From Anaerobutyricum sp. (GTDB lineage Bacteria; Bacteroidota; Bacteroidia; Bacteroidales; Tannerellaceae): a stretch of 45,229 bases of DNA. The stretch spans positions 10,773 to 56,001 of the forward strand of contig CAVGKO010000001.1 of the NCBI GenBank assembly GCA_963629885.1, read 5' to 3'. A program made the position numbers and the translations under genes. Within the stretch, counting starts at the first letter, position 1. Each line of letters opens with the position of its first letter. The notes beneath the pieces are model-generated. The model had not been told where the DNA came from. It made no database searches and saw only the letters and a program-made list of their open reading frames with translations. This document shows, piece by piece, positions 2,424 to 24,442 of this stretch.

Positions 2424-2439
2424 CGGGAAATTAAAGACA

Positions 2440-2786: not shown

Positions 2787-2788
2787 AA

Positions 2789-5711: not shown

Positions 5712-8700
5712 ATGGACGAAAAGCAGAAACCACTATATGAGTTATACACGGAACTCCCTGAGTCCGGTTATCAAGTAGCCGAAACATATGAAGAATTCGA
5801 AAAGGCATTCACGACTGACCCTGATGCCGAGAAAAATCGTCACACCCTATTCGAAGAACTGAAAGATAAGGGATTAGGACCTGAAAACTACGAAACGTTT
5901 TATAGCACTCTATTCCAACCGAAAGATGCGAAAACTTCGGTTGCTATAGACCCGAACACTACTAAGCCAAGTACTCAGTCCCAAACCAAGCAAGTCGACC
6001 AAACGGCAACGGGAACGCCAACGAATGTTGCCTCTGGAACTGGTTCTGCGGCAGGAACGACAGATAAAGTTGCTGCGGCAAAGGACGCGAATAAGTCCCA
6101 ATTGGACAGCAGACCGAGTATTACAAGCGTTCTTGACAATGTGGCCAACGATGTCAAGCAAGCTGTAACAACTTCTACTGACCCCCAATTGAATCAATCG
6201 GCGCAATCCGCGTCGATGCAACACGGGCAGTCCCCCACTGTTGTGAACCAACAGGAGAAGTCGCGCGGATACAATGTGTGGAAGACTAAAATCAGCAACG
6301 CCTTTGACGATTATGCTCTGGGCAAGATAGACGATAAACAATTTAAGTCGACCATCGACAATGTTGGCAAGGATATAGAATCCGGAACGGACAACCAAGA
6401 CGAACGTAACGAGTTCAATACGTTTATTAAGGATTTGCAGAAGCGCGCCCAAAACACAAGAAGCACCAAATCTGTACAGGTCAAGGCCGGCTACGAGGCA
6501 TTCCCAAACAATAGTGATTCTGTTGTATGGGATTTCAAACTCAGCCGGAAGCAGCTCCCTCACCAGCAGGACTACGTTCGCACACTCCGCAATATGGTAA
6601 CTGGCGGTCAGTCATTCAATGTTATGTACAATGTGACTGACCCGGAAATCCAAAGAGACTACCAGATTGTGTCCGACCCCAAAGCGGAATCTACATATAA
6701 GCCCAACGACTATATACTTGGCGAGTCGAAAGCACAAAAGGATAAGGATTACCAACTTTACGCAGCGTATCTATACCTAAACGGAGGAGATTTACCCGAT
6801 TGGTTGGACTATACAGCCCAAAACAAAATTAAGGCACTGAGCAAGCAAGAACTGGAAACGAAAGCGAATCAATGGAAATCGCTCGTTGATGGCACACGCA
6901 CGAAGCGAAAATATAAAGGTCTGAATTCTATTGCAGATTATTACGCAAGTCAGAATACATTCTCTACAGGTGAGGCTCGCGCAACATATGGCAACCGCTT
7001 CGCCACGATTGTCCTGCCCAATGGAACGTACCAGACAGTCGACATCCATGGTGTAAAGGGTGACCAAGCCTCAGTTGGCGATGCACGAAAGGCGTTCAAT
7101 GCACGATTCAATAGTACTGAAACTGCTGATGAGTCGGGGAACGGTAATGCTCAAGCCCCTAAGGGCGATACCTACCTGATGCCAACAATCTTCAATGAGG
7201 AACGATACTCGAACTCTTTCCCTGAATGGGATGATTTGGACGATAAGACCAAGGCTCAATTCGACAATAGCGTTTTCAAGTACTGGGACGAGATGAACAA
7301 ACGTCAAGCCATTTCCGTGCCGGTATTCGTGGAGAACGGCAAAAGCGTAGACAAGGCAGAAGACGAGTTCAATGCGAAAAATGCCAAAACTCAATTCGCG
7401 CAACTGACCAAGAGGGAGGAGATTGAATCGCAAATCAAACAGGCGAAGAAACTCCGGAAGCTGCTTGAAACAGCCTTTGAGAACCTACGCCAATCAGCAA
7501 AAGAGGAACGAAATGGCGGTGTGAGTACAATGTTGGGCGATGCAGGACAATTTCGCGTTGCATTCCGCAATATCGACAATTTCATCGAAGCCGGTGAACG
7601 AGCCATCAAAGACCGTCACTATAGTGCGTTCACATCATTTTGGGAGAACCTTTCCGATGCTGGCGGGTGGTCACTGGGACTGACCAATTTGAACGAGGCT
7701 TTGGGACTCAATCACCTTGCCAGTGGCGAAGGGGTTAGCCCCGAAATCGAAAAGGCATTTGGCGGGAAAAAAGGCGTTAAGGAATTCGCAGCTGCTGTGC
7801 AATATTTCGGGCAGAAGGCCGAGCAATGGCGGCAAAAGTTGGGCTATTACGATGAAGCAGGCAAAGCAGGCTTAATTCAGTTTATGGGCACCTCTATGTT
7901 GCCAACCTTTAAGGTCGCAACTCTTGCTGGTAATGCGGCAAAAGGTGTCGTAAAGTTTTTGGGCAAATATGCAGTTAAAGCTCTTGACAAGGGTGTGGCC
8001 GAAACTGCGAGTGCAAGTATACGGGCAGTCTCCCAATCGGCGATAAATCGCTCTCTAAAAACTGCGCTCAAAGAAGGCGGCATGGCAGCTGCTACGCGCT
8101 ATGGCGCAGCCAAATCTTTGAATGTTGGCGTGAACGCCGCTGCTTTAGTTGCCCAAGGCTTTACGGACGGCACTATTCTTAGTGTGCCCGAAGTATTCAC
8201 CAATGTGGCAAATCGTCGCACAGGTAATGCACAAGTCGCTGAAATAACGCGAGAAGGCATCAAATTTGGTGACGAACTATTCGTGCATGACAACCAAAAT
8301 AGCGAAAGAGACGTTATAAAGGAGACTCTCCAACGCGGGCAAGCAGAATGGATGGGTATGCGTTTGGGCGAGATTTTCGGACCGTGGTCACGCTACCTGG
8401 ACCAGCATATGATGAGCTGGGGAAAAACCGCGTATAAAAAGACGTTGGGCAAATTTCTCGATGGTTCGAACCTCGAAAAGACTTTGGGAATGATTGCCAA
8501 GGGAGCCAAGGCAACAGATGTATACAAGTACGTTACCAATCGGCTTGAGCAAGCCGGCATGGGTGGCAGTCTCACATTCTACACGCAGAACAACCTAAGT
8601 CAGTTGATCAATGCTCTGACGGTCGGAGATGTGTCTGTCAGTGAAGCGTTGAGTGGAAAAAAAGGAAATAATATTTCTTGGGCGGATATGACCTGGGGAC

Positions 8701-11700
8701 AAATCCAAAAGGCTTGGGGTGCCGTCATTGACAATGCTATCGTGTGTGGTGTTCACACAACAATCGGAGCAGCCTCATATAAGAAGCAATGCCTTGACCT
8801 GACGCGGTTGCAACGGAAAAACGAGAAGGAATGCACAAGAGTATTGGACGAAGAATATTGGGCGAAGCTGAAGCATGACATCGACCTGTGCGGCGAAACG
8901 TCCGACAAGGCATTAATCGCTTACACCCGTGCTATTAGAGATAATGCGGATTTAAGTGGTGAAGCGAAGCAGGCCATAATCAACTATGCCTTAACGCTTA
9001 AGACTCAGCAAGCACTTAATTATGGTGCGCTCAACAACGGTAAAACCAATGCACTCGACCTGCGATACCAAGATGCTTACGATGCTGGTGCCGATGTGAA
9101 ATCGCCTGACGAGATTTCGAAACTTCAAGAAAATGCCAATAGCGCAAGAGTATCACTCGCCAAGCTGCTTGGATGTAGCACCGACGAAGTCGATTCCAAA
9201 GTGAAAGGATTCGGCGAAGGCTATCGCGAAATCTATGAGGCGGCGACCAAAGACATTGCGGACGAGCAGAAAAAGAAAGAAGTCCAGAATGTCCTTGACG
9301 TATATTTCACCAATTTGGCTGCGGTAGAAGGTGCGCACGACGCTCTCATTGTAGACCATGAGCAGAAACTGGAACAGAATAAATCTTACGTTGAGCAGAA
9401 CAGCAACAAAGAGTCAGGAACCACCATCCAAGCTACGGATAAGGATGGTAGGATATGGTATGTTATCAGTGGTGACCCGCGTAGAACCAACTCATCAGAT
9501 ATGCTAATTGTACGCGATGGTGTAACGGGTGAGATTGGACACGGCTCTGTAAGTGAATTCGAATTTGCCTCAGAACAGAACACGCAGGACCTTGTCAATG
9601 AAGGCAATAAATCTATAAGCGAAGAATACCTTTCTAAGCGCAATGCCATTTTGAAAGGCGAGACGTTGCCCGAAAGAGGTGATAAAGTTTCTGTGCTTGA
9701 TGCCAACGGTAAGGTTATAGAAGTCACGGTGGAAGGCATAGAGCAGTCCGAAACTGACGGAACGCCAACGGGTATTACTGTCAGAACTGAAGATGGGCAA
9801 ATGTACAATTTTACCACAGATGAATATCGCAACGCGGTAAAAGGAGTGGCAGAACGAGAAACCGCAACGTATATCGGAAATGATAATTTCGCGCTCAATC
9901 GTGCAATTAGTTCTTCTCAGGTTGCCACGGGTACGGAATTCGTGCATGACGGCAAGCGGTATACATTCGACCACATCGACGACAATGGTAATTGGGTAGC
10001 GCGACCGGTTGGTCAAGAAGGTCACTCGGTTGAATTCTCAGAGGAGGAAGTCAGAACTGGCATTGACGATTTACTCGCCGGTAAAGTTCAAGGCTCAGAA
10101 CAATCTGAAGCGAACAACGATGAAGAAATAAAAGTCGGCACAGAGTTCACTTTCGAAGATGGCACGCCCGGAGTTGTGACGGGAATAAGAGACGACGGAA
10201 CATTTTTTATTGCCTCGAAAGATAGCCCTGTTTCGTTTGACGCGTCCCGCGAGAGGGTTACTGAATTAATAGCGAAAAGTCATAATGCAGAACGAGCAAC
10301 AGACGCGAGTGGTGAAAGTCCCAAAACTCAGGACACCACCAAAACCGCTGCTGACGACAAAAAGGAACAAACTGCTGCCGACATCTCAGTGGGCGACAAA
10401 ATCACCATCAATGGCCACATCTATAAGGTAGAAGGCATTGACGGGAATAGGTGTGCCATTGAAAAAGACGGGCGTAGATACATTTGGCGAGTTTCAGATA
10501 TAGAAAAAGGCATTGAAGACGGACGTGTGAAGATAAATGCCGAAACTGAGTCTACTGACGCGGCAGAGAAATCTTCAGAAACTGACATCGCTCCTGCCGA
10601 GCGAATCGAAGACGAAAGTGCCATCGGACTTTCCGAAGCTAATAAGATACCTGAAGGTGAGGCAACCTCATCTGACCAGGAGACTGGTAAACTGGAAACG
10701 CCGCATACCGACGTGGAAGAATCTTCTGCGGAGGTAAAGCCACAGCCCCAGGAAGGACAGGCTATCGTCACGGATGAAAACCCAAAGGAAACTCCTACCA
10801 CAGAAGCACCACTCGACCACCATGCTCCTGCGTTGAATCGTATCCCCAAAGATGAGAAAGGAGAACCTATGTTTGAAAAAGCTCCCTTGGATCAGTCTTA
10901 CGATGCCCTATTGGAGCAGACTGGTGGAAGCGCGGAGACTACAAGCGAAGTCATCAAGGAAATGGTTGAGGACAAGCGCAAGGCTCTCGCTGATGCCGAG
11001 GCGGAAGAGATTCCCCACGCAAATGGTGCAATGGCTAAGATTGCCGCGCGAAAGGCTCACGATGAGAAGGTGAAGCAGGCGCGTCAGGAACTTGAGTATT
11101 GGGAGGACTTGGCGCGTGTTCCCGAAGAACGGGCAAGGGCTGAAGAGGAACCGCAGCCTATTGGCAAAGGTTTCTTCGGCAATATCTATGACCAATTTAA
11201 GGGTAAGGTAAAGGCTGCTTTAGACTTTCTTTTAAAGCATAGAGAAGGTGATTTGCTTGGCGTGTTCCATCGCGATGACCTTGGGGACATTGACTTGGTT
11301 TGGGGCAATAGAGCGGAAAACCGAGGGCTTGACCACATTATAGACAAGCACATCGAACGTTACCATGACTTCGCCAATGCGGAAGAAGCCATGAGAATTA
11401 TTGATGACGTTATCAACAATGGACAAGTCAATGAGAAGAAAAGTCGTTGGGATAAGGTCGTTTTGGATAAAGATGGCTATAGCGTAGTCATTCGTAAGAA
11501 TCTCCGTGACGATAAAGGAAACATTATCGAAAATAGTAAGAATTGGGTAGTAACGGCATTTGACAACAACCGAACAGAGAAAGAAAAATCTTCACCCGAT
11601 ATTACCATAGCAACCCCTAATACCGATGAAGGGAGCAGGGCTGTCGCTCCCGGTGAAGATTCTTCTGCCTACAAAGGTACAATAGAACACACTACCGGCA

Positions 11701-14700
11701 AAACATCTTCCACCGAAAAAGCCGAAACAGACAACAAAAACTCCGTTTCAGACCAGATATCGGAGGTATCGACGGGTGTCGACGCAGAGTTTACTGGGTC
11801 GAAGAAAGGGAACGCACGCAAAACGGACGGTGAACCTCACGCCCACCCTGAGCAACCTCTCACAGAGCGCACGCGACAAGCCTGTGAGTCGGTAGCAAAG
11901 TCTTTAGGCATTGATGTGGAATGGGTAGACCATATGCCCGAAAACGGCTCTTATGCCCCCCATGGGAAGAATGGTCGTCCTGTCATCTGCATTGCACGCG
12001 ATGCCGAAAACCCGCTTTCCACTGTGTTCGGTCACGAAGGGACGCACGCAGTACGTTCCATATCGGAAGATGCCTACAAGTCGCTCGTTGATAAGGCACG
12101 CGCCGTGGTGGGCGATGAGGAATGGAACAAGCGTTTCAAAGCCACCAAGGAACTCTACGAAGGCGAGCATCTCACCGATGACCAAATTGCCGAAGAGGTG
12201 GTTGCCGACATCGTGGGCGAGATGATTACCGACCGCGATATGGCTGAGAAACTGGCTTACCGACTTGACCACCCGACTCTTTCTGCCCTGCGCGATGTTG
12301 CACGGAAGATGTGGGAAACGGTGAAGCGTTTCGTTGGCGGTAACAAACTGACTGCCTACGAACAGGCGGTGAAGGACTTTGCGGACACTATTGAGCGCGC
12401 GTTTGCGGACGCGAAGGAAGCATCGGAATCATTGTCGGAATCCACACGGACGGAGATGGCTGAAAATAGTCTTGGCATTTCTGGCGGAGCCGTCATGTCG
12501 GACTATGCGCGAGGCATCAAGAATCGCACTGGGTATCAGACTCCCAACGAAAGAGGGGAATTCGCTGACGATTCTGAAAAGCATTCCAAGCGCACGTTAC
12601 CCTTCACGATAGTTTATTACAAGTCTCTTGCTAACGCACGCCAAAGCACGGCAAATGCTCTTGAGAACTGGTCTATGCGTAGAGCCATCCAAGACGAAGT
12701 GAATGAAATCATTGACGGGTTTGAAGACAAGATGGAAGGACGCGACAAAACATCACTTGGCAATTCTCCCGTCCGCAAACAGGCCGATATTTACGGGTTC
12801 TCTTTTGATGTGGATACAAGCTGCCCCCGTTCATTTGTGAACCTTGCTTGCGTAGAGGAAGCAGAACGTAGATTGGGAAGACCTCTCACGCTGAAGGAAT
12901 CCGTGCAACTGAATGAGCATCTTCGTGCATATGGTCTTCAGATTCCATGTGTTTACTGCTATGTGGAAAACAAGCGTCAGGCACTCAAGGACTCTATCCA
13001 TACCTTTATGGCGGCACGCAATGGTGTCTATAATGCGAAGTCGGAACGTGAAAGACGAAAATTGATGTATGGTCAGCGGAAGCCCACGGCTAAAGACCCA
13101 AGCACACTCACCAAGGCTGCGCAGACACGTCTTGCTGAATGGAGTCAGCGAAAAGATGCCGGAGACGACTATAATCCGTCTTTACCCGAACTCTATTCGC
13201 AGTACAACAACGCGCGCAGTTATGTTCTCCTCATGCTCGGCTCGCTCAACGAGAGAGGTGACATCAGCGAGACAAATAGTGCAAATGCTTTGGCTAAAGT
13301 CGTAACAGAGAGGCTCGCCCAATATGCCGACCTGCATGACGCGGACAAATCATTTGTAAAAGGCGAAATCACATCCATTTGCGAGGATTGGATTTACGAC
13401 AAGGTTCACAAAGAGGAACATACACATTTCAGCGAGGACGCAGCCTACGACTGTGATACCCGCAACATTTTCCGTCCCTTGAGCCTTTGGAACGAGGCAA
13501 CGAAGTATGCCAAGTCATCCTCAAGCGCGAAGAAAGTCAGCAAGTATATGCCTTACACCGATGAGCTGCGTTATCTCACCCCGGAACAGATTGACGCACT
13601 CAATTCCATTGGCGGTTTGCGCTTCCATTCCAACAACGATTTCCGCATTGACTATGTAGAGGACTATTTCCAAGTGCTTGCACATATGTCAGCCATCGGA
13701 CTTATGGGACAAGCCTATACAAAGAGTCCCGACTTTGTCCGAATTTTCGGTGGAACGGGTCTACGTGTAAATATGTCCATCGCTGCCTATGGAGGCGAGA
13801 ACGGCAAACCGATCATCATGAACGAGCAGGAAGGTTTCAACTGGAAAGTGGCGCAGGAACTCCGCGAAAAGTATCCGGATGCCGGGGTAATGATGATGGT
13901 CACCAACGATGCCCAGCTTGAATACGCCCTCAACTGTCCTTGGATTGACATGGTCATTCCGTTCCATGCATCGGGACTCCCCCGTGCGGTATGGTATAAT
14001 ATGCGCCAGTGGCAGAACTATACTGCAAAACAGAACGAGAAGCTCATTAATGCAGCAGACAAGAAGAAAGCACTAAAGGCCAAAGGGATTGACTTTAAGA
14101 AGGAGACGGAAGGTATGTCGAAAGATAAGGCATCGGCATGGCTGAATGACACCTACGACAAGACTTTCGGTACAAAGCACGTTTATGGCATAAAGGAAGG
14201 CAAACGAGTGCTTGTCTGTCCGCACTTCGAACCCGGTGATAAAGTTATTGAGAACGAGACCGGCAGATATGAGATTCCTGGCCATCACAATGACCTTCAG
14301 ACGTATCTGCAACTTTGTGAGGAATATGGCGTTAAACCGCGTTTTGCCGGAATAAAGGTGCGCGATGCCAATGGCAAACTGATAGACGTGACCGAGCACC
14401 CGAATTATATGAAGCTCATCAAGGAGACAGCACGCACCGAAATGGAACAGCACCCTGTCGAATTCAACATTGATCAGGCTGACGAACGTATGCCATTGAT
14501 TACTGAAGACAACGCGCACATTATCTTCGGTAATAACTACGACAAAGCAGAGATTGGCAAACATATGTCTCCTATGCAGTATGCCATGACGCAGATGTTT
14601 GACTTCGCGAAGAAAGGCGGTTACACGGATGTGAAGGACTACAAAACATTGTCCGAATCCACCGGCTATGGTGACATAGTTGGAGACTTCATTGACAACG

Positions 14701-17700
14701 TGGTCAAGAAGAACCGTCCCATCAATTACCTTACCGATGATGCCCACCTTATGGCAAGCATCACCAATAAGGCTCTGACTGAGGCCTATGGCGGCAGAAT
14801 GCCTTACGAGGGCAAACGTAAAGCTGATGTGCGCCACTCCCGTCGCAGCAAAGTCACCCCCGAAGAGCGCGCCATCCGCGACGAACTTGCCAACACCATG
14901 AAGAACGCGGGCATTGATGTGTCCGTGGATGATGAAGAGGGGCAGAGGGTGATGGACGATGCAAGGGAAATGGACGATGTAAGGTTGAGTGCTAAACGAA
15001 AAAGAGCACTTGAAACCGCGTACGTTTCTCAAAGCGAGGAACATCAACCAACTGTCGTTTCAAGTGCCGATGGTGCAAAAGTACTAAAAGATATTGATAT
15101 TATCGTTTCAAAATACGAAAAACATTCAAACCAAACTAAAACTTTCATCGGTGATGTAGCAACTGCACTTGGCGCAACCCGTGATGGAAGCAAATCCGAA
15201 TACGCTACATTTGAGACAAAAAACGGCAAAATTGTCACCATCCGCTTGGCTGACCACAATGCTACTGTTTCCAACTTTGACAACCGTGGAGAGTTGGACG
15301 GCATCAGTATTGTTATCACCCCCAAAACGAACGAGGGCATTACCAACGATGGCGATGCTCATGTCGTGGAGCATTTCTACGATTCCATTAAGTTGCGCAG
15401 AGCAGACGGCAAACCTTTGGCTGAAATCGTCAAGTCCATTAAACAATCACTCTATAGCGGTGAATTCAAGGACACGACAGGACTTGCCGAACGGCAGGAG
15501 GTTAATGCTGATACTATCCGTGAGCAACGCGTCTACCACGGCAGCGGCGCGGACTTCGACCACTTCGACCATTCGCACATGGGCGAGGGCGAAGGAGCGC
15601 AAGTGTATGGTTGGGGAACGTATGTAACCGAGGTAGAAGGCATTGGCAGAACGTATGCTCGCGCAAGCAACCAGTCTACTCTACGGAAAGAGAAACTCAA
15701 AAGCGACATCAGTAGAGCAAAAGAGAGATTGCCGTTTATGAAAGGTGAATACAAAACTGCTCTGGAGAAAGAAATTGCTCAGAAGGAAGAAGAACTGAGC
15801 AAGATGTCCGATGCTAATCATCACCTTTATACTGTCGAAATCCCCGATGACAACGGGAACAACTACCTTGACTGGACTAAAGAGTATTCCGAAGATGATG
15901 TGTATTCCATCATTGAAAGGCTACTTGACGTTGCCGCGACCAAAGCTAAAGAAGGTAATTTAGATGAACGCGAAAAACTTAGAGGTGCAGCCGACCGTAT
16001 AGCCGAATGGGTAGATGGTGATTTGAAAAACGATTTCTTCGACAAATTAACAGGCGAGAACATCTACCGAAAGGTCGCGGGTAGTTTTGAAGATTACTCT
16101 GAAGAGGAAGCATCTAAGTTGCTGTCCGAAGCTGGTTTTGCTGGCATCAAATACCCTGCCGAGAACATGAGTGGTGGCCGTGCCGATGGTGCAAAGGACT
16201 ACGTCATCTTCAACGAAGCCGATGCTCAAATTACCGACCATATTCGTTTCTTCCGCACCCCCAACGGCGAAGCGTATGGATTCACCAAGGGCGGCAAGAT
16301 ATACATCGACCCGCGCATCGCCAAAGCCGACACGCCCATCCATGAATATACCCACCTTTGGGCAACCGCCCTGCGCCAAGGGAACCCGAAAGAGTGGGCG
16401 AACGTGGTGAACCTAATGAAGGGCGAGAAGGAACTTTGGGACGATGTGAAGAAACGCTACCCCGAACTCAAGGCCGATGACGAGATTGCCGATGAAGTAC
16501 TTGCCCATTATTCGGGCAAGCGCGGTGCAGAACGTCTCCGTAAGGAGCAACGCAAGATTGCCGAAGGCGAAGGCTCTATCTTTGAGAAGGCGCGCGCCAT
16601 CCGTGCGTTGGAGAAGGTGAAGCAAGCCCTTGATAAGTTCTGGAAAGGTGTGGCAGACTTCCTGCACATCCACTACACAAGTGCCGAGGAAGTTGCCGAC
16701 CGCGTGATGAGTGACTTGCTGAACGGGGTGAACCCGACAAAGAACACAATCCGTGAGCAACGCGTCTACCACGGCAGCCAAGCGGACTTTGATTCGAAGG
16801 TGTTGAACAAATTGGAAGGTCGTGGAACATTGCAGTCCGAAGAGACTGACGTGACCGACCTACCGAAGGATATGGCATACCGTGAAACTGACATCAATGA
16901 ATTGGCCGACATACTTAAAAGCGGTGGTATGCGACGTATGCCCAATGGCAAAGTCGTAGAGCATACACCAAAACCGGGACGCATCTCCTTAAGACCGAAA
17001 CTGGGCGGCAATTCCCATGGTGGAAAAGGTTTTGCAAAGGGCGCACCGTGGAGTTCATTGGGTGGAACACTGTCTGGTGGTTCTGCAACAAAGGTTTTAA
17101 TAGGAGTTCCGGGAAAGAGCATAGAATGGCAAACAGGTCATCACGGCAGCTACACCGAAGCAAAACCATTCGAAGACATCAAACACGGCGAGCCGTTGTT
17201 CCTTAAGTTTGATGAGAACGGGAATGTTCCCGTTAGTGTGTCTAATATGCGCATATGGGTTGTCGACAAGGGCGGCAACTACCATGAGTTTATTCAAGAC
17301 TCAAACTCCGATGCCAAGATAACCGACGGCAACGGCGGTGAGAAACGGACTGACGAGCAGGACGATAATTTGCTTTACCGCACGAGCGATGAACTCAACT
17401 CCGAATATGGTGACCGATGGATATCTGAGCAAACCAACGAGGACGGACGGCACACAACCCAAGTAAAGAACACTATCAACTCCTACAAGAAATTTGGAGA
17501 ATGGGTAAAGGCCGATTCCAACGGAAGAGATGTTTCCATCCTTGACGCAAGTAGCGGCCTTGGTCTTGGCACAGACTGGATGCGCGAGAACGGAATGAAT
17601 GTGGATGACGTGGAGCCATATCCCTCCGAGGATAGAACGAAACCTACATTCACAAGCTACGATGACATTGACAAAAGGTACGACTACATTGTGAGCAATG

Positions 17701-20700
17701 CAGTACTCAATGTTATCCCCGATGACTGGCGCGCCAACGTCCTGCACAACATGGCAGACAAACTGAAGGATGGCGGTAAGATGGTCATTAACGTTAGAGG
17801 TGCAAACTCCATTGCCAAACAAGGCAAAGAAGGCGTGACACGCATTACGCTTGATGACCCATCCGAAATTCTTGTACTCCGTCCTGACGGAAGCATCAAG
17901 GCTTATCAGAAAGGCTTTACAAAAGAGGAACTGAAAGACTGGTGCAAGAAGGAATTGGGCGATGGATATTCCGTTGAAATTGCAACGAACAAGAATGCGG
18001 GCGGCAGCTACGACACCGCAGTGGTGGTCACTAAAAATAACGAAAGTGGCACTATAGGTGTCACTTCCGAGGCTGGTCATCCACGCGGGAGTGCGCAGAC
18101 CGTACCCAATTCGTATGCAAAGTTAGACAATGGTTTGGAAATAACAAAAGGATTGGATAATATTGTCAGTCAGATTACACAAAACGGCAAGATGGGCGCA
18201 CACGAATTCCTTTACAATCTATCAAGCTCATTTGGTTTCAAGGGCAAGAACCTCAAAGAATCCTATTATAAGGACTTGAGTGAGAATATAGGTATTCGCA
18301 TTGCAAATCATTATGCTAACGCTGATAATTTTGCGAAGAAAGGCTCAAACGAAGATAACTACGGCATAGTAATCAAACTCTCTCCCAACAAATTCAAAGA
18401 CAAAGATGGTGTGAATTACCTTGAGTATGTGTACTTCCCAGACAAACTCAGTGGTGAACGTCAAACTGAAATTGTCAACGGACTCAAAACTTTCTTGCAG
18501 ACTGGTGACTACGCCGCACTACCTCATCCCGACAAGGTAAATGCATCGGGTAGGTTTAAGGAAGAATTGCTATTGCAGAACCCCGAATCTCCCGAAGCCA
18601 AAACCGCAGCCGTCAACACCCTCTCCAAGGAGATGAATCTGCAAGGCAACGTGACCGTCCTCACCTCAACCGAGGGACTCACCGGAAAGAAAGCCAGCGC
18701 GCCTGGATGGTGCGACCCGAAAACAGGACACATCACCATCGTCCTGCCCAACAATGCCGATGCAGCTGACGTGCAGAAGACTGTCTTCCATGAAGCCGTA
18801 GGACACCACGGACTCCGCAGACTGGTGGGTGATGGCAACTTCAACGACTTCCTCGACAACGTGTACAACAATGCCGAGCAAGGAATCACGCAAACCATTG
18901 ACCAACTTGCCAAAGAGAAGCATCAGGGAGACAGACGCAAAGCCACCGAGGAATATATGTCCACCCTTGCCGAGGACGAATCTTTCCTCAATGCCGGAAA
19001 CCGCAGTCTGTTCCAGAAGGTGAAGCAGCTCTTCACCGACCTTCTCCGTAAGGCGGGCATCAACCTTGGCACGGAACTCACCGACAACGACCTTCGCTAC
19101 ATTCTTTGGAAGAGCTACAAGAACCTCACTGACAACGGCAACCCTGACGTGTTCGCCCAGGCAGAGGACATTGCCAAACAAAATCATCTCAAGGTGGGTG
19201 ACTATGCCAAGCACGAAACCGCTGCCGAACGTGAGATTAACAATGCCGACAACGAGCGTGGACTTCTCTTCCGCACTCCGTCCGCCCCAAACAACGACCC
19301 GATGAACGTGGCATCGTCCTACTATAACCAAAAGGCTGAGACACTTGGCACGAAGACTCTTTTCGGTGGGCTTTGGGCAGCAATGCGCCATCCCAAGGAG
19401 AACGGGCACAAGTTCCTCAACGAGGCATCGGAATCATTCTTCGACTACTCACGTTCCGTCAAGGCATTGCAGGACGGCATAGCGGAAGCCCTTGGCCGTC
19501 CCATCCGCGATGACGAGGACGCATGGCGCACGATGAACTCGCTCCCCGCAGTGAACCAAGAGCAGCTCAACGCAGTGCAGAACAACCTTGTGGCTCCCCT
19601 TGGCGAACATATCGGCAACATCATCAAGAACACAAAGGACAAGCCGGGCGGTGCGCGCACGATGGACGATGTGGAAATCTACCTCAACTGCAAGCACGGT
19701 CTTGAGCGCAACAAAGCCATGGCCGAGCGCAATGCCGAAGAGGTGATGGACAAAGCCAAGAAAAACTTGGCGAACATGATGGATAAGGCTTATGCTGAGA
19801 AACTGAGGATAATGGCAAGCGGTGACCAGCAAGCAATCAGCGACTACAACAAGAAGGTTTCCCACATCAAATCCCGAATGGGGCAGGGCAAACGCATTGA
19901 CGATAGTGAATACGCCAAAGTTGCAGCCGACCAATTAGGCACGTTCGCCGACCGCAAAGACTTACTTATAGTAATAGGACAAACTGCTGATGCCTACATC
20001 GATGCATTGCGCGACCAATATATCGAAGCGCAATGCAAAGACTATTCCGGTCTGACCGAAATATTCCATCCCGACTATAAGGAACAGCGCGCACAAGGTG
20101 TCACCTACGATGTCAATAATCTTGAAGACGAAGCACGGAACCTTATTGCTCAGTTTGAGGGTGCAGTTGGGAAAGCCGACATCGATGAACTATGGAAATT
20201 GGTCGGCAACCTCACCGACTTTGCACTCCGCAAGAGTTATGTGAGCGGCAATATCTCTCTTCAGCAGTATCAGGACACCAAAGCAATGTATGCCAACTAT
20301 GTTCCCCTTCGCGGATGGAACTCTAAGAATGCGGACGACGTGTACAACTATGTGGCGGGCAGCAGCGGACTCACCCCGGAGGATTTCCAAAAAGTGATGA
20401 AGAAAGCCTACGGTCGCGAGTCGCGCGCTGGATACATCTTCGGCACGATGATTGACATGGCCACCACCGCAGTGAGTCAAGGCAACCGCAACGTGATGAA
20501 ACAATGCCTTCTCAATCTTGCCGAGCGCAGTCAGACCAATCTACTCCGTGCGGGAGAAGTGGTATATGAGCAAAGTTCAAACGGCACCCTCACCTCTGTT
20601 CTTCCCAAGCTCCACGACGGAATGACCGAGCAGGAGATTGCCGATGCCTATTCCGACTGGCAGGACGATGTGAAGAACGGACTTGCCAACGGCACATACA

Positions 20701-22661
20701 TACGCATCAACTCCAAACTCAAGACGGGATTACACGCTCCGCAATGGGAAGAAGACCAACACCAAATTGTGGTGAACCGCAACGGCAAAAAGTATATTGT
20801 CTACGTCAATGGAAATCCACGCGCGGCACAGGCCGTCAACGGTTTGCTCGATTTCACCTCTGACTACAATGCTGTGGAGAAACAACTTCTCCGCCATTTT
20901 GCAGCAGTGCAGACCTCCTTCTCTCCCGAATTTGTGGTAAGCAATGCCCAACGCGACCTTGCCACCGCAGCAGCAAGCGGATTCATTAAAGAAGGCGCAG
21001 GATACACCAAGGACTTCGTGGCTAACTATTTCAAAATAATGCCTGGGGGTTCTCTGCTCAACGGCGACGCCAAAACCGGAACTGAAAGGGTTGTAGGCAT
21101 CTACGACCTCATCAGAAGGTACGACCGCAATGAACTTGACCTCACGAACGATACCGACCGCTATTACTACGAATTCTGTACAAACGGAGGCAAGACTGGT
21201 ATCACAAACCTTCGCCGCATAGAAGACTACCAAGAACAGGTTGACAAGATGACGCGCGAGGTGCAGAACAAGTACGGCACGATGCCACGAAGAGCCGTCA
21301 AGGGCATACTCGATGCCATCGAATACATCAACGCCGGTGTGGAGAACGCCACACGTTTCGCCACCTACATGACGAGCCGTCAGCGAGGTAAAAGCGTGAA
21401 GCAGTCCATACACGATGCCAAAGAGTGCAGTGTCAACTTCAATGCCCACGGCAGCGGTGCTTGGATGGATTCCTTCTTCCGCAAACACTACAACTATGCC
21501 AACGCGGTGTTCCAGTCTCTCCGCATGAACAAGGAGTGGATGAAGAGCAATCCCCAACGATATACCGGGGTGGTAGCTGGCGCACTTGCAATGGGTATGT
21601 TGTCGGCTTTGCTGGGTACTGCAATCTGCGGAGGCAACGACGATGACGAAAACGGATACTACGGGCTTTCGGAATGGAACCGCTATCGATTCTTTAATAT
21701 CCCCGTAGCCAAGCATGGATTCCTACACTATGCATTGCCGCAAGAATTTAGAGGTATGTTCGGAACGGGCGTATCCATTGTAGACCTCATCAATGGAAAG
21801 ATAACCACAGACCATTTTGTGAAAACTCTGATGTCGAACATCAACGATTTCTCAGTGGTTCCCTTCTACGATGATGATGCCTACAATCTTGCGTCCGGTG
21901 ATATGAGTATCCCGGGAATGCTGGTTAAGGGATTCATCCCGACTATTGTGGCACCAATCACTGATGCCTATCTCTACAATAGAGATTTTCTTGGCCGTCC
22001 AATCACCAATGCAACGAGCAACAACAAGCAGGCTCCGGAATGGCAACGTGCAGGAAAGGACACTCCGCAAGTCATGATTGACGCGAGCAAATGGCTCAAC
22101 GAGCATACTGGCGGACAACCCAACCGCAGAGGTGGACTTGAAAACGCAACAGGAGCTATGCTGAATCCGAGTGCAATTTGGTACATCATTGAACAAGTTG
22201 GCGGCGGCACGATGACTTTCGCCACCAAGATGAAGAAAACCTTCGAAGCAATGCTGACGGGCGACACTTCCGAACTGAAGGAGAACGACATTCCGTTCGC
22301 AGGCAAGTTCTACGTCTCTTCAAGTGATGACAACTCCAAACAGCGTACCATCAACGAACAGTACAACGGCATCACTCAGGACTTCAAGAACCTTGACTAT
22401 GAGCTGCGCAAGAACTGGCGCGGCAAGAATATCACCGACGGCGAATTCAACCAACGAATGCGACAGCTAATGGACGAAGGTCAAGTAGAACTCTGGGACT
22501 CTATCGTAGGCAATGAACACGCCATTAAAACAATGCAACGCGCGATACACAAGAACCCGGATAATGAGGAATTGAAGAAGGAACTTGATTCACTGATATA
22601 TCAGAACAAAGTCGAAATCGTTCACAAATACGAGGCGTGGAAAAAGAAATATCATAAATAG
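5712..22661 (+). CDS. Giant polyvalent protein (5649 aa), likely virion-packaged and injected
   Basis: Uninterrupted ORF. Contains a PBECR-like RNase motif (GDIDLVWG..GLDHIIDKH), three zincin motifs (GHEGTH, HEYTH, HEAVGHHG), a CVYCY radical-SAM-like region, a YHGS ART-like domain, a class I SAM methyltransferase (ILDASSGLGLG; SNAVLNVI) and an LPD38-like C-terminus. Confidence 0.88.
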   Translation: MDEKQKPLYELYTELPESGYQVAETYEEFEKAFTTDPDAEKNRHTLFEELKDKGLGPENYETFYSTLFQPKDAKTSVAIDPNTTKPSTQSQTKQVDQTATGTPTNVASGTGSAAGTTDKVAAAKDANKSQLDSRPSITSVLDNVANDVKQAVTTSTDPQLNQSAQSASMQHGQSPTVVNQQEKSRGYNVWKTKISNAFDDYALGKIDDKQFKSTIDNVGKDIESGTDNQDERNEFNTFIKDLQKRAQNTRSTKSVQVKAGYEAFPNNSDSVVWDFKLSRKQLPHQQDYVRTLRNMVTGGQSFNVMYNVTDPEIQRDYQIVSDPKAESTYKPNDYILGESKAQKDKDYQLYAAYLYLNGGDLPDWLDYTAQNKIKALSKQELETKANQWKSLVDGTRTKRKYKGLNSIADYYASQNTFSTGEARATYGNRFATIVLPNGTYQTVDIHGVKGDQASVGDARKAFNARFNSTETADESGNGNAQAPKGDTYLMPTIFNEERYSNSFPEWDDLDDKTKAQFDNSVFKYWDEMNKRQAISVPVFVENGKSVDKAEDEFNAKNAKTQFAQLTKREEIESQIKQAKKLRKLLETAFENLRQSAKEERNGGVSTMLGDAGQFRVAFRNIDNFIEAGERAIKDRHYSAFTSFWENLSDAGGWSLGLTNLNEALGLNHLASGEGVSPEIEKAFGGKKGVKEFAAAVQYFGQKAEQWRQKLGYYDEAGKAGLIQFMGTSMLPTFKVATLAGNAAKGVVKFLGKYAVKALDKGVAETASASIRAVSQSAINRSLKTALKEGGMAAATRYGAAKSLNVGVNAAALVAQGFTDGTILSVPEVFTNVANRRTGNAQVAEITREGIKFGDELFVHDNQNSERDVIKETLQRGQAEWMGMRLGEIFGPWSRYLDQHMMSWGKTAYKKTLGKFLDGSNLEKTLGMIAKGAKATDVYKYVTNRLEQAGMGGSLTFYTQNNLSQLINALTVGDVSVSEALSGKKGNNISWADMTWGQIQKAWGAVIDNAIVCGVHTTIGAASYKKQCLDLTRLQRKNEKECTRVLDEEYWAKLKHDIDLCGETSDKALIAYTRAIRDNADLSGEAKQAIINYALTLKTQQALNYGALNNGKTNALDLRYQDAYDAGADVKSPDEISKLQENANSARVSLAKLLGCSTDEVDSKVKGFGEGYREIYEAATKDIADEQKKKEVQNVLDVYFTNLAAVEGAHDALIVDHEQKLEQNKSYVEQNSNKESGTTIQATDKDGRIWYVISGDPRRTNSSDMLIVRDGVTGEIGHGSVSEFEFASEQNTQDLVNEGNKSISEEYLSKRNAILKGETLPERGDKVSVLDANGKVIEVTVEGIEQSETDGTPTGITVRTEDGQMYNFTTDEYRNAVKGVAERETATYIGNDNFALNRAISSSQVATGTEFVHDGKRYTFDHIDDNGNWVARPVGQEGHSVEFSEEEVRTGIDDLLAGKVQGSEQSEANNDEEIKVGTEFTFEDGTPGVVTGIRDDGTFFIASKDSPVSFDASRERVTELIAKSHNAERATDASGESPKTQDTTKTAADDKKEQTAADISVGDKITINGHIYKVEGIDGNRCAIEKDGRRYIWRVSDIEKGIEDGRVKINAETESTDAAEKSSETDIAPAERIEDESAIGLSEANKIPEGEATSSDQETGKLETPHTDVEESSAEVKPQPQEGQAIVTDENPKETPTTEAPLDHHAPALNRIPKDEKGEPMFEKAPLDQSYDALLEQTGGSAETTSEVIKEMVEDKRKALADAEAEEIPHANGAMAKIAARKAHDEKVKQARQELEYWEDLARVPEERARAEEEPQPIGKGFFGNIYDQFKGKVKAALDFLLKHREGDLLGVFHRDDLGDIDLVWGNRAENRGLDHIIDKHIERYHDFANAEEAMRIIDDVINNGQVNEKKSRWDKVVLDKDGYSVVIRKNLRDDKGNIIENSKNWVVTAFDNNRTEKEKSSPDITIATPNTDEGSRAVAPGEDSSAYKGTIEHTTGKTSSTEKAETDNKNSVSDQISEVSTGVDAEFTGSKKGNARKTDGEPHAHPEQPLTERTRQACESVAKSLGIDVEWVDHMPENGSYAPHGKNGRPVICIARDAENPLSTVFGHEGTHAVRSISEDAYKSLVDKARAVVGDEEWNKRFKATKELYEGEHLTDDQIAEEVVADIVGEMITDRDMAEKLAYRLDHPTLSALRDVARKMWETVKRFVGGNKLTAYEQAVKDFADTIERAFADAKEASESLSESTRTEMAENSLGISGGAVMSDYARGIKNRTGYQTPNERGEFADDSEKHSKRTLPFTIVYYKSLANARQSTANALENWSMRRAIQDEVNEIIDGFEDKMEGRDKTSLGNSPVRKQADIYGFSFDVDTSCPRSFVNLACVEEAERRLGRPLTLKESVQLNEHLRAYGLQIPCVYCYVENKRQALKDSIHTFMAARNGVYNAKSERERRKLMYGQRKPTAKDPSTLTKAAQTRLAEWSQRKDAGDDYNPSLPELYSQYNNARSYVLLMLGSLNERGDISETNSANALAKVVTERLAQYADLHDADKSFVKGEITSICEDWIYDKVHKEEHTHFSEDAAYDCDTRNIFRPLSLWNEATKYAKSSSSAKKVSKYMPYTDELRYLTPEQIDALNSIGGLRFHSNNDFRIDYVEDYFQVLAHMSAIGLMGQAYTKSPDFVRIFGGTGLRVNMSIAAYGGENGKPIIMNEQEGFNWKVAQELREKYPDAGVMMMVTNDAQLEYALNCPWIDMVIPFHASGLPRAVWYNMRQWQNYTAKQNEKLINAADKKKALKAKGIDFKKETEGMSKDKASAWLNDTYDKTFGTKHVYGIKEGKRVLVCPHFEPGDKVIENETGRYEIPGHHNDLQTYLQLCEEYGVKPRFAGIKVRDANGKLIDVTEHPNYMKLIKETARTEMEQHPVEFNIDQADERMPLITEDNAHIIFGNNYDKAEIGKHMSPMQYAMTQMFDFAKKGGYTDVKDYKTLSESTGYGDIVGDFIDNVVKKNRPINYLTDDAHLMASITNKALTEAYGGRMPYEGKRKADVRHSRRSKVTPEERAIRDELANTMKNAGIDVSVDDEEGQRVMDDAREMDDVRLSAKRKRALETAYVSQSEEHQPTVVSSADGAKVLKDIDIIVSKYEKHSNQTKTFIGDVATALGATRDGSKSEYATFETKNGKIVTIRLADHNATVSNFDNRGELDGISIVITPKTNEGITNDGDAHVVEHFYDSIKLRRADGKPLAEIVKSIKQSLYSGEFKDTTGLAERQEVNADTIREQRVYHGSGADFDHFDHSHMGEGEGAQVYGWGTYVTEVEGIGRTYARASNQSTLRKEKLKSDISRAKERLPFMKGEYKTALEKEIAQKEEELSKMSDANHHLYTVEIPDDNGNNYLDWTKEYSEDDVYSIIERLLDVAATKAKEGNLDEREKLRGAADRIAEWVDGDLKNDFFDKLTGENIYRKVAGSFEDYSEEEASKLLSEAGFAGIKYPAENMSGGRADGAKDYVIFNEADAQITDHIRFFRTPNGEAYGFTKGGKIYIDPRIAKADTPIHEYTHLWATALRQGNPKEWANVVNLMKGEKELWDDVKKRYPELKADDEIADEVLAHYSGKRGAERLRKEQRKIAEGEGSIFEKARAIRALEKVKQALDKFWKGVADFLHIHYTSAEEVADRVMSDLLNGVNPTKNTIREQRVYHGSQADFDSKVLNKLEGRGTLQSEETDVTDLPKDMAYRETDINELADILKSGGMRRMPNGKVVEHTPKPGRISLRPKLGGNSHGGKGFAKGAPWSSLGGTLSGGSATKVLIGVPGKSIEWQTGHHGSYTEAKPFEDIKHGEPLFLKFDENGNVPVSVSNMRIWVVDKGGNYHEFIQDSNSDAKITDGNGGEKRTDEQDDNLLYRTSDELNSEYGDRWISEQTNEDGRHTTQVKNTINSYKKFGEWVKADSNGRDVSILDASSGLGLGTDWMRENGMNVDDVEPYPSEDRTKPTFTSYDDIDKRYDYIVSNAVLNVIPDDWRANVLHNMADKLKDGGKMVINVRGANSIAKQGKEGVTRITLDDPSEILVLRPDGSIKAYQKGFTKEELKDWCKKELGDGYSVEIATNKNAGGSYDTAVVVTKNNESGTIGVTSEAGHPRGSAQTVPNSYAKLDNGLEITKGLDNIVSQITQNGKMGAHEFLYNLSSSFGFKGKNLKESYYKDLSENIGIRIANHYANADNFAKKGSNEDNYGIVIKLSPNKFKDKDGVNYLEYVYFPDKLSGERQTEIVNGLKTFLQTGDYAALPHPDKVNASGRFKEELLLQNPESPEAKTAAVNTLSKEMNLQGNVTVLTSTEGLTGKKASAPGWCDPKTGHITIVLPNNADAADVQKTVFHEAVGHHGLRRLVGDGNFNDFLDNVYNNAEQGITQTIDQLAKEKHQGDRRKATEEYMSTLAEDESFLNAGNRSLFQKVKQLFTDLLRKAGINLGTELTDNDLRYILWKSYKNLTDNGNPDVFAQAEDIAKQNHLKVGDYAKHETAAEREINNADNERGLLFRTPSAPNNDPMNVASSYYNQKAETLGTKTLFGGLWAAMRHPKENGHKFLNEASESFFDYSRSVKALQDGIAEALGRPIRDDEDAWRTMNSLPAVNQEQLNAVQNNLVAPLGEHIGNIIKNTKDKPGGARTMDDVEIYLNCKHGLERNKAMAERNAEEVMDKAKKNLANMMDKAYAEKLRIMASGDQQAISDYNKKVSHIKSRMGQGKRIDDSEYAKVAADQLGTFADRKDLLIVIGQTADAYIDALRDQYIEAQCKDYSGLTEIFHPDYKEQRAQGVTYDVNNLEDEARNLIAQFEGAVGKADIDELWKLVGNLTDFALRKSYVSGNISLQQYQDTKAMYANYVPLRGWNSKNADDVYNYVAGSSGLTPEDFQKVMKKAYGRESRAGYIFGTMIDMATTAVSQGNRNVMKQCLLNLAERSQTNLLRAGEVVYEQSSNGTLTSVLPKLHDGMTEQEIADAYSDWQDDVKNGLANGTYIRINSKLKTGLHAPQWEEDQHQIVVNRNGKKYIVYVNGNPRAAQAVNGLLDFTSDYNAVEKQLLRHFAAVQTSFSPEFVVSNAQRDLATAAASGFIKEGAGYTKDFVANYFKIMPGGSLLNGDAKTGTERVVGIYDLIRRYDRNELDLTNDTDRYYYEFCTNGGKTGITNLRRIEDYQEQVDKMTREVQNKYGTMPRRAVKGILDAIEYINAGVENATRFATYMTSRQRGKSVKQSIHDAKECSVNFNAHGSGAWMDSFFRKHYNYANAVFQSLRMNKEWMKSNPQRYTGVVAGALAMGMLSALLGTAICGGNDDDENGYYGLSEWNRYRFFNIPVAKHGFLHYALPQEFRGMFGTGVSIVDLINGKITTDHFVKTLMSNINDFSVVPFYDDDAYNLASGDMSIPGMLVKGFIPTIVAPITDAYLYNRDFLGRPITNATSNNKQAPEWQRAGKDTPQVMIDASKWLNEHTGGQPNRRGGLENATGAMLNPSAIWYIIEQVGGGTMTFATKMKKTFEAMLTGDTSELKENDIPFAGKFYVSSSDDNSKQRTINEQYNGITQDFKNLDYELRKNWRGKNITDGEFNQRMRQLMDEGQVELWDSIVGNEHAIKTMQRAIHKNPDNEELKKELDSLIYQNKVEIVHKYEAWKKKYHK
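11581..11666 (-). ncRNA. Putative antisense structured small RNA 1 inside the giant ORF
   Basis: Minus-strand TACCTTTG (11672-11679) with TTTG 19 nt upstream. Closing stem 11587-11596/11652-11661, inner GGGAGC/GCTCCC hairpin, U-tract at the 3' end. Confidence 0.55.
14997..15071 (-). ncRNA. Putative antisense structured small RNA 2 inside the giant ORF
   Basis: Minus-strand TACTTTTG (15076-15083). Perfect 11-bp stem GCACTTGAAAC (15006-15016)/GTTTCAAGTGC (15057-15067), then TCTTTTT. Confidence 0.55.
15516..16778 (+). repeat. Perfect 30-bp direct repeat (15516-15545 and 16749-16778) at domain boundaries of the giant protein
   Basis: ATCCGTGAGCAACGCGTCTACCACGGCAGC occurs twice (IREQRVYHGS). Confidence 0.95.
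18033..18114 (-). ncRNA. Putative antisense structured small RNA 3 inside the giant ORF
   Basis: Minus-strand TAACTTTG (18118-18125) with TTTG 19 nt upstream. Imperfect long stem (ACGAA/TTCGT; CACTCCCG/CGGAAGTG) followed by TATTTTT. Confidence 0.45.
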
Positions 22662-22756: not shown

Positions 22757-23230
22757 ATGAATGAATACAATTTATTTTTCGACATAGACACGTGCGACAT
22801 ACTTGATTTGCTTAATGTGCAAACCGCCTATCTCGGTGCGAAGATTTTGCAAGCAGACGGCAACGCCTACGAACGTATATCAATGACCGATGGCAACATC
22901 GATTTTGTTCGCCCTGCAATGGACTCGGCTACCAGCGTACTCTGTAATGCGCTGAAACGCTACGCGCCCAAAATGACGGGCGGAACCCTCAGTTTGATAG
23001 TACCGACAAATCAGCTCACCGTTAACCAAGCATCCACAGAGAACGCCATTAAATTGTTCTACGTCTCATACGTTATGTACAAATGGCTCACGATAACCAA
23101 TCCAGCAATGGCAGAGAACTATATGAACGAAGCGACGATGCACCTGACTACTGCACGCAATATGCTCGCTAAGAGGAAAGCACCAACCTATTCAGCACCA
23201 ACTGAAGGAACAGAAACAGCAACCGAATAA
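22757..23230 (+). CDS. Putative head-tail adaptor/ring protein, paralog 1
   Basis: Structural gene cluster. FYVSYVMYKWLTIT.P motif shared with the next two ORFs. Confidence 0.6.
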   Translation: MNEYNLFFDIDTCDILDLLNVQTAYLGAKILQADGNAYERISMTDGNIDFVRPAMDSATSVLCNALKRYAPKMTGGTLSLIVPTNQLTVNQASTENAIKLFYVSYVMYKWLTITNPAMAENYMNEATMHLTTARNMLAKRKAPTYSAPTEGTETATE

Positions 23231-23241
23231 TACCTAAAGGA

Positions 23242-23847
23242 ATGGCAAAGCAAACCATATTCATCAAACTATATATTCAGGAGATACTCTACGACATCCT
23301 ACAAAAAGCGTATAGTATCGGTGACATACTGTCAACGGACGAAAATGCCGAGCAAGCGGCAAAGATTCAGGAACTTGACGAGGGAAACCGCAACATACTG
23401 CTCCGGTCTATTGGCGGAACGATAGCCAGCTTGCGCTCCCACCTTGCCGAATACCTTGTGGACGATGGCAACAACGCAGACGATATTCTGTTTACCGAAC
23501 TTCGACAGAAGATGGCTGAAGGACTGGCGTTCGGCTATGCCGGAAAGCCTGCTACGAGTGATGGAACAGAGGACAATAACATCATGTTTCTCTTGCGTGT
23601 ACCAATGAATTTCAATCCGGCAGCAAAGGAGGATATTGCTCAAGCGGCGCATTCATACATCGTGGACACGGCACTTTCTGAGTGGCTCGCCATATCTTCG
23701 CCGACAAACGTGGAATACTATTCAGGGCGAGCAAACGCCGACCTTGTAAAACTACTCACCGCAATAAACAAACGGATTCGCCCGGCAAGAACCCATGCCC
23801 CTGCAACAGACATCCAACCCCAATCAAACGACATCAGATATGAGTAA
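23242..23847 (+). CDS. Putative head-tail adaptor/ring protein, paralog 2
   Basis: LRVPMNFN...HSYIVDTALSEWLAISSP. Confidence 0.6.
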   Translation: MAKQTIFIKLYIQEILYDILQKAYSIGDILSTDENAEQAAKIQELDEGNRNILLRSIGGTIASLRSHLAEYLVDDGNNADDILFTELRQKMAEGLAFGYAGKPATSDGTEDNNIMFLLRVPMNFNPAAKEDIAQAAHSYIVDTALSEWLAISSPTNVEYYSGRANADLVKLLTAINKRIRPARTHAPATDIQPQSNDIRYE

Positions 23848-24442
23848 CGCAAAAGTAGTTTATGGCGCATACGGATATGTAGTTGGAACGTCCGAAACGA
23901 TAGCGCAATACTTGAGCCACGCAAGCAGCAGCGACGAAGAGGCGAAACTAACTGTCACACTTCTCTTTAGCCGCGAGGCTCTGCTATACGACATTTCCAA
24001 CATTGCCTATGTGGAGGCAGACGTGATGGAAGCAGAAAACCCGCACCAGTCGCATCAAGTGTTCGACATAACGGAAGACGGCAACATCGACCGCATCACC
24101 CGCATCCTTGACCTGGTACATACCTCCTGCGTGGAAGGACTCTATCCTTTCACGAAAGACTCCTGCGAGGACGGCATGGAACTCAACGACAATTTCAGCG
24201 AGACCGATACCTACGTCATCACGCTCAAAGTTCCGCAAGATTTCAGTTCAACCACTGCAAAGTACTTTGAACAACTGATTCACGAGTATATGGTCGACAT
24301 GGCTCTCGCTGAGTGGCTGATGATAACCAAACCAACTTCCGCACAGAACTGGGCAGCTAAAGCCCAAAACATCATCGAAGAGATAAAGAGCAAACTCAAC
24401 ACGCGGAGCGGACGCATCCTGCGACCGCTGCGCCCATTCTAA
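23840..24442 (+). CDS. Putative head-tail adaptor/ring protein, paralog 3
   Basis: LKVPQDFS...HEYMVDMALAEWLMITKP. ATG 23840 overlaps the end of the previous gene. Confidence 0.6.
   Translation: MSNAKVVYGAYGYVVGTSETIAQYLSHASSSDEEAKLTVTLLFSREALLYDISNIAYVEADVMEAENPHQSHQVFDITEDGNIDRITRILDLVHTSCVEGLYPFTKDSCEDGMELNDNFSETDTYVITLKVPQDFSSTTAKYFEQLIHEYMVDMALAEWLMITKPTSAQNWAAKAQNIIEEIKSKLNTRSGRILRPLRPF

Follow-up and report, generated by a model that had tools for sequence, protein, structure and literature searches.

Three short antisense RNA genes lie inside the giant open reading frame (ORF) of a prophage in the DNA analysed here (the window: contig CAVGKO010000001.1 of assembly GCA_963629885.1, positions 10773-56001 of the forward strand, 45,229 nt; all coordinates below are window positions). 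Judged from sequence comparison, these cassettes represent a real and widespread class of RNA genes that overlap phage effector genes and that is apparently undescribed. Comparison of homologues shows the RNA folds to be under selection on the antisense strand, to be specific to the family of the adjoining protein domain and to follow a promoter of the host's type. We put the probability at roughly 55% that the cassette RNAs are domain-specific antitoxins for virion-delivered nucleases, with a type III-like mechanism in a new layout. Among the functions proposed in an earlier, sequence-only reading of the window, RNA antitoxin fits best.

Antisense cassettes inside a polyvalent phage gene

The giant ORF, the cassettes and their partner domains are listed below; the RNA starts are inferred.

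5712..22661, plus strand: polyvalent protein, 5649 aa, single ORF (ORF and domain profile matches)
11265..11576, plus strand: PBECR1 predicted RNase domain, aa 1852-1955 (Pfam PF18809, E 7e-18)
11576..11667, minus strand: cassette 1 RNA, ~90 nt; three-way junction, closing stem, U-tract at 11576-11586
11672-11679, minus strand: cassette 1 promoter, -7 box, with TTTG at 11699-11702 (motif scan)
14994..15071, minus strand: cassette 2 RNA, ~78 nt (alignment of homologues)
15076..15083, minus strand: cassette 2 promoter, -7 box (motif scan and homologues)
15084..15506, plus strand: IRxxH domain, copy 1, aa 3125-3265, IRLADH at 15240 (sequence comparison)
18033..18113, minus strand: cassette 3 RNA, ~80 nt; hairpin 18075-18101, terminator-like hairpin 18041-18069, U-tract
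18118-18125, minus strand: cassette 3 promoter, -7 box, with TTTG at 18145-18148 (motif scan)
18126..18536, plus strand: IRxxH domain, copy 2, aa 4139-4275, IRIANH at 18294 (sequence comparison)

Each cassette begins with TAnnTTTG, which we take to be the Bacteroidota -7 box. All three minus-strand elements named in the sequence-only reading (11672-11679, 15076-15083 and 18118-18125) are present, the structured segments are followed by U-tracts, and the translation contains the linker peptides AYKG, GAKV and YAKL. The 19-nt spacing to TTTG that had been claimed for two cassettes was seen in cassettes 1 and 3; in cassette 2, TTTG lies 25 nt upstream of the -7 box. As a conserved feature the -33 TTTG was rejected, occurring in 12/84 structured cassettes and 9/83 others, without enrichment. 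The arrangement relative to the domains also holds: the PBECR1 profile match stands immediately before cassette 1, and cassettes 2 and 3 precede two paralogous domains that align at 27% over 135 aa (E 3e-8).

Cassette 1 combines a perfect 10-bp closing stem (11652-11661/11587-11596) with two inner hairpins (11631-11651 and 11597-11625) and folds strongly as a single sequence (z -3.97), while cassettes 2 and 3 fold modestly (z -1.18 and -1.55). Its loops are complementary to each other (-8.8 kcal/mol), which we treat as a lead only because both are nearly invariant and show no covariation. In cassette 2, a perfect 11-bp stem (15057-15067/15006-15016) precedes the U-tract. These two closing stems stand as first described, whereas the end-pairing proposed for cassette 3 fell: it had 0 compensatory pairs, and 138/500 shuffles were equally good. 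The cassette 3 family fits an inner hairpin plus the terminator hairpin, with 7 compensatory pairs, equalled in 0/500 shuffles (7 sequences, mostly one divergent).

A fourth candidate (promoter 14813-14820, minus strand; ~21-bp hairpin in 14729-14820, z -5.5) was left out because it had no viral relatives and no matching footprint was seen by eye in homologous proteins. Its position coincides with the end of a domain of ~700 aa (aa ~2330-3030); this domain contains CxxC motifs, lacks a Pfam match and has many homologues among other giant phage proteins.

Conservation, covariation and chance controls

All three cassettes are kept in homologues. The cassette 2 promoter was present in 14/14 loci of a first scan and in all 34 loci (24 distinct) found by the domain core alone, its box lying 36-57 nt before the matched core. 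The family shares a 12-bp closing stem, recovered independently by RNAalifold, together with a conserved bulged junction, an apical hairpin whose sequence varies freely yet refolds, and a U-tract. Across 22 sequences, 97.4% of cells were paired and 8 of 16 pairs carried two-sided changes, a result reached in 0/500 shuffles; in slid controls pairing fell to 34-41%. Read on the antisense strand, the wobbles comprise 32 G·U and 0 A·C cells, and the antisense is therefore the structured strand. At the protein level, the peptide footprint of the promoter precedes 147/153 IRxxH domain copies, counted in the 150 best representatives of 859 at E <= 0.001, against a background of 9.7%.

Compared with its relative L111, cassette 1 carries six two-sided changes and a single internal difference at an unpaired base, and a third relative lies on contig C278 of the same genome; loops remain invariant while stems covary. 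Contigs C278 (L017) and C279 (L172) are fragments of a second polyvalent protein. On these fragments, a PBECR1-like domain is accompanied by an RNA that shares 88% identity with cassette 1, a divergent IRxxH domain has a cassette of its own, and the promoter beside an LPD3 domain is degenerate.

By itself the -7 motif occurs at chance level, as the sequence-only reading had anticipated: the ORF has 8, and 300 synonymous-codon shuffles had a mean of 7.9. Two motifs each with a -33 box appeared in 2% of shuffles. The combination of box, closing stem of at least 9 bp and U-tract is far rarer: two such passes, the number found in the window ORF, arose in 0/300 shuffles and one in 7/300. Cassette 3 fails this composite test. 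In the rest of the source genome, only 2/262 antisense motifs in open frames of at least 300 aa pass it, both on contig C278, beside the PBECR1-like and IRxxH domains.

Domain specificity across giant phage proteins

Fifty-eight giant open frames, including that of the window, were reduced to 35 non-redundant ones (332 kb), in which the background frequency of the box was 7%. Counts of domains with an antisense box in the adjoining interval were as follows.

After PBECR1: 8/8
After MuF_C: 18/18
After LPD3 (giant ORFs): 13/13
After PBECR3: 5/6
After LPD13: 4/4
After three unnamed families: 3/4, 3/3 and 4/5
Before IRxxH: 29/30
After peptidase: 0/50
After ART: 0/15
After LPD38: 1/11

Each domain family has its own RNA fold. 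Many PBECR1 copies are accompanied by three- or four-way junctions, and MuF_C RNAs form rods in which 11/13 predicted pairs show two-sided changes. A short U-(U/G)-R-G-like core recurs in the apical loops of MuF_C-linked RNAs although the encoded peptides differ, possibly marking a protein-contact or substrate-mimic loop.

The promoter follows the host. Among 35 non-redundant PBECR1 copies, 10 carry TAnnTTTG only, 21 a sigma70-type -10 only, one both and three neither; named Helicobacter and Campylobacter phages belong to the sigma70 group. Phages of Campylobacterota and Bordetella have a sigma70-type -10 in the same place, and in bbp10 of Bordetella phage BPP-1 (66% GC, background 0.01) TACAAT is followed at the same distance by a closing stem and U-tract. 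A regular-expression scan for the sigma70-type peptide footprint in a second, Bacillota protein set gave, for example, 4/13 for LPD3 and 1/6 for MuF_C.

An indirect lead on expression exists at the level of the gene, not of the predicted box. HP0488 is presumably a paralogue of HP1116. The accessible part of a review (PMC8322730) tabulates HPnc5970/6000 as antisense to HP1116 and HPnc2240/2250 as antisense to HP0488 in H. pylori. HP1116 is jhp1044, according to the available text of PMC549213, and jhp1044/HP1116 is a PBECR polyvalent protein of PMC5512222; the window PBECR1 domain matches an HP1116/jhp1044-like protein.

Stand-alone modules

Searching 251 genomes of the window's order for LPD3 yielded 22 matches spread over 16 genomes, one of which holds five. 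In 17/22, a convergent box 73-124 nt beyond the domain heads a folded RNA (z -1.5 to -6.6), compared with a base rate of 50/1319 after ordinary ORFs. Two of the remaining matches have a box farther off and three have none, one of these three looking false. The gene stops at the RNA in 16 of the 17 loci, leaving the RNA largely or wholly non-coding. Because stand-alone genes carry it outside the coding sequence, the RNA rather than the peptide is the conserved entity. A distant short IRxxH gene has its cassette in the 5' part.

Copy number varies. Five stand-alone LPD3 RNAs contain an internal repeat, stand-alone PBECR1 genes have up to three cassettes in tandem, and extra RNA copies are stacked in several loci (L117, L163; L038, L041), as expected of antidotes. 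Stand-alone modules sit in varied contexts, and no small gene recognisable as a protein antitoxin was seen beside them in eight loci mapped by eye. Taken together with the host-matched promoters, domain specificity, strand bias, covariation and conservation, these stand-alone versions strongly support the proposal that the small RNAs travel with each domain.

Two further observations concern such loci. Related phages (L034, L038, L041, L046) vary in the number (1-3) and type of sigma70-type cassettes after a stand-alone PBECR1 gene, and one of these RNA types may be an orphan. In two genomes (L176, L177), a stand-alone LPD3 gene with a repeat-containing RNA lies between the same two genes in opposite orientations; a neighbour of this module resembles what we take to be a Cas8-like protein.

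Partner domains and prophage setting

The sequence-only reading had called all three partner domains putative RNases; this holds for PBECR1 only, as the IRxxH domains have neither a profile match nor a significant structural match. PBECR1 has a His in its N-terminal helix (H1875/H1880) and a Thr in its last strand (T1948), the BECR arrangement described in section 19 of PMC5512222, and thus belongs to the predicted BECR RNases. IRxxH domains have invariant S, Y, R, H and E residues, match nothing in Pfam, NCBIfam or PADLOC, and returned an empty sequence search of PDB. Two models, with predicted local distance difference test (pLDDT) values of 70 and 94, were compared in five structure searches; no match to PDB or BFVD was significant (best Z 4.8), and Foldseek yielded nothing at E <= 0.001. 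The weak matches lean towards restriction-nuclease-like folds, with no BECR structure among the matches listed, and hhalign gave IRxxH and PBECR1 sequences a probability of 2%. In the ESM Atlas, IRxxH found only unnamed viral clusters, below 0.9. Among 401 genomes sampled from the phylum, the domain occurs in the source genome only, and it is in no GenBank phage.

P22-like portal, SU10-type capsid, terminase and T7 gp14-like genes mark the window as a podovirus-like prophage. The close relatives of its domains are mostly Prevotella, Bacteroidales and Muribaculaceae entries, with a few labelled Bacillota bins, so the phage host is probably a member of Bacteroidota. Amid these virion genes, the giant ORF joins PBECR1, ART-PolyVal, methyltransferase and LPD38 matches with zincin-like peptidase motifs; with several conflict domains in one phage polypeptide, it is a polyvalent protein as described by Iyer et al. 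2017 (PMC5512222). Its product is probably a virion ejection protein, to judge from LPD38, the neighbouring T7 gp14-like, portal and capsid genes and the precedent of phi24B gp47: the accessible part of a preprint (bioRxiv 10.64898/2026.04.10.717836) reports the LPD38-bearing giant protein of phi24B in virions and proposes it as an ejection protein.

Relation to known RNA-based systems

At the gathering threshold, Rfam gave 0 matches in the window and 40 homologous loci, with one chance match at E 3.5. ARAGORN found 0 tRNA-like sequences in 14 sources, and no match above shuffles was obtained to 24 tRNA/tmRNA genes found in the incomplete source genome; at the sequence level, the idea that the RNAs act as tRNA decoys gained no support. 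A search for guide-like off-locus targets in the source genome yielded only 14-nt chance matches and the paralogous cassette.

The cassettes resemble type III toxin-antitoxin (TA) systems (ToxIN, CptIN, TenpIN) in pairing a predicted endoribonuclease with a cognate structured RNA that ends in a terminator-like U-tract, and some of the RNAs are repeated. According to the available text of PMC12283969, type III RNAs share strand and operon with the toxin, upstream of which they form tandem pseudoknot repeats. In contrast, all cassettes are separate antisense genes with their own promoter, usually single, inside or just after the coding sequence, and their partners have BECR-type or unassigned folds. 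The window RNAs are single, with the loop-loop complementarity noted for cassette 1, and internal repeats occur in five stand-alone loci. Pfam gives PBECR1, MuF_C, LPD3, PBECR3 and LPD13 in the domains scanned, with no ToxN-type match. Since layout and toxin family both differ, we do not class the cassettes as type III or AbiF members. In AbiF/RCd22, as the accessible part of 10.1101/2025.04.15.648962 describes it, a prophage toxin is neutralised by direct binding of an adjacent non-coding RNA; the cassettes share the pairing of a prophage-encoded toxin, here a putative one, with an adjacent non-coding RNA, and binding would be the corresponding step here.

Type I TA systems offer the closer layout: a small antisense RNA, often convergent, with its own promoter and terminator. 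Here too the RNA is encoded opposite the putative toxin gene and complements its mRNA. However, type I toxins are mostly small peptides and their RNAs act by pairing, whereas here enzyme-like domains of 110-140 aa within a gene of 17 kb are the partners, and the self-closed fold of the RNA argues against RNA-RNA pairing as in type I.

MuF polymorphic toxins of temperate phages are protected against by downstream protein immunity genes. They are similar in that toxin domains are fused to virion proteins, and the available text of PMC5576092 mentions neither 'antisense' nor 'RNA antitoxin'. Likewise, the accessible part of a 2026 preprint on BECR classification (10.64898/2026.08.28.747851) contains neither 'antisense' nor 'non-coding'. 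The main text of PMC5512222 lacks 'antisense', 'noncoding' and 'linker', and its section 19 offers no mechanism of self-protection. In the literature searched, which covered open papers and few supplements, we found no description of the cassette RNAs.

Proposed function and alternatives

We propose that each nuclease-type domain is half of a two-part module, the other half being a short antisense RNA gene that is read as an inter-domain linker. The RNA would be a constitutive product of host RNA polymerase, transcribed even from the silent prophage and from DNA that has just been injected, and the folded RNA would bind and block its cognate domain, as type III antitoxins do. It would thereby shield the cell during synthesis of the virion protein and make lysogens immune when kin phages inject the same domain. 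A stand-alone gene with a convergent RNA may be the free form, from which the whole module would have been captured in-frame by the giant gene; such capture would explain domain shuffling in the giant protein without protein immunity genes. We favour the antitoxin because it explains why each domain has one RNA, why only nuclease-type domains have them, why variant copies are stacked and why no immunity gene is evident.

Several points weigh against this proposal. Transcription, binding and inhibition are all inferred, the toxicity of PBECR, LPD3 and MuF_C domains is a prediction, and for IRxxH the RNase label lacks support and a role on nucleic acids is putative. Domains of the PBECR, LPD3 and MuF_C type may spare host tRNA and rRNA, as PMC5512222 argues, and the same paper calls the MuF-C of phage Mu inactive, yet MuF_C copies carry RNAs. 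PBECR2 was without a promoter in the tested interval (0/4). The antisense, convergent or divergent layout is that of type I rather than type III. No orphan cassette 2 RNA was found: all 37 minus-strand model matches outside the window adjoin the domain, and the RNA was matched in 0/150 genomes of the same family (32 candidates scored per genome). The sequences are related, so the shuffle counts overstate independence, and the tested structures were drawn from the same alignments. In AT-rich hosts the background of the sigma70 -10 is high, at 0.2-0.8 per scanned interval, and in H. pylori antisense starts occur in almost half of ORFs, according to the available text of PMC3417511.

A cis-antisense role as in type I, with the RNA pairing to the mRNA and causing its cleavage or transcriptional interference to limit leaky toxin synthesis, seems rather unlikely. 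It would account for the antisense layout, including the full complementarity to the mRNA and the convergent 3' arrangement of stand-alone genes, which resembles txpA/RatA-type loci, but not for closed, family-specific folds: both RNA ends are locked in long stems, folds and bulges differ by domain, loops stay invariant while stems covary, and one RNA per domain would be redundant for silencing a single mRNA. A role of the RNA within an active ribonucleoprotein, as cofactor or subunit (a scaffold, activator or guide, possibly packaged with the protein in the virion), also seems unlikely to us. The strict one-to-one coupling without cassette 2 orphans speaks for such a role, as do the presence of RNAs with MuF_C, which is reported inactive in phage Mu, and the unassigned fold of IRxxH, whose restriction-nuclease-like matches are weak (Z <= 4.8). 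Yet the variable parts fold back on themselves and leave no free guide, the source genome holds no off-locus target beyond chance and the paralogous cassette, unrelated folds would each have had to gain a cofactor, and tandem variant copies suit antidotes better.

That the promoter and hairpin are vestiges of mobile cassettes, serving as insulator, terminator or recombination site with no RNA function, is quite improbable. Stand-alone modules do occur in varied contexts, and polyvalent proteins are highly mosaic (PMC5512222). This reading is weakened by compensatory changes that are maintained within coding frames even though they alter amino acids; moreover, the folds are multi-branched and family-specific, and peptidase and ART domains, which are just as mobile, lack cassettes. 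Chance motifs or a by-product of protein conservation can be set aside almost entirely. The chance frequency of the -7 motif and the modest single-sequence folding of cassettes 2 and 3 would agree with this, but it is contradicted by the codon shuffles, covariation, domain specificity, promoter swap, stand-alone loci and passes on C278, and by the persistence of the RNA where it is untranslated.

Other elements of the window

Two Panacea/SocA antitoxin genes (2789-3778 and 41146-41595, plus strand), one fused to an MqsA-like part, each have a plus-strand TAnnTTTG upstream (2416 and 41094), as has a KilA-N gene at 29981 (29950). At 31342-31431 (minus strand), a promoter, a long imperfect hairpin (z -5.7) and a U-tract lie directly before a minus-strand ORF (phrog_27246), resembling a terminator or attenuator leader or a separate small RNA. 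Three phrog_19255 paralogues stand in tandem at 22757-24442; across the junction of two of them, at 23750-23857 (minus strand), TAnnTTTG is combined with a multi-hairpin, end-paired segment (z -2.2) and a T-run.

Implications for phage biology

Phages commonly carry PBECR domains in polyvalent and MuF-fused proteins, and the literature checked describes no immunity partner for them. The cassettes offer a directly testable answer to how a phage survives making such domains, with one specific ~80-nt RNA per domain, and the promoter peptide footprint could serve as a shortcut to effector domains not yet described. Even under the alternative explanations, the cassettes are a large set of structured RNAs missing from Rfam.

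A further, more tentative possibility is that the virion delivers poison and antidote together: nuclease domains would be injected, and host-type promoters on the injected DNA would make tiny RNA antidotes at once, without translation. If so, a host that lets the phage genome survive would be rescued, a host that destroys it would be left with an active toxin, and lysogens would be immune only to phages whose domains match the lysogen's RNAs. Cognate RNA inhibitors, encoded antisense in protein linkers, would in that case exist for each of at least nine domain families across several bacterial phyla. If the cassette RNAs are antitoxins, RNA antitoxins, so far tied to a few toxin families, would also act on BECR-type nucleases and on a new fold, and the stretches of polyvalent proteins taken for 'low-complexity linkers' would be overlapping RNA genes.

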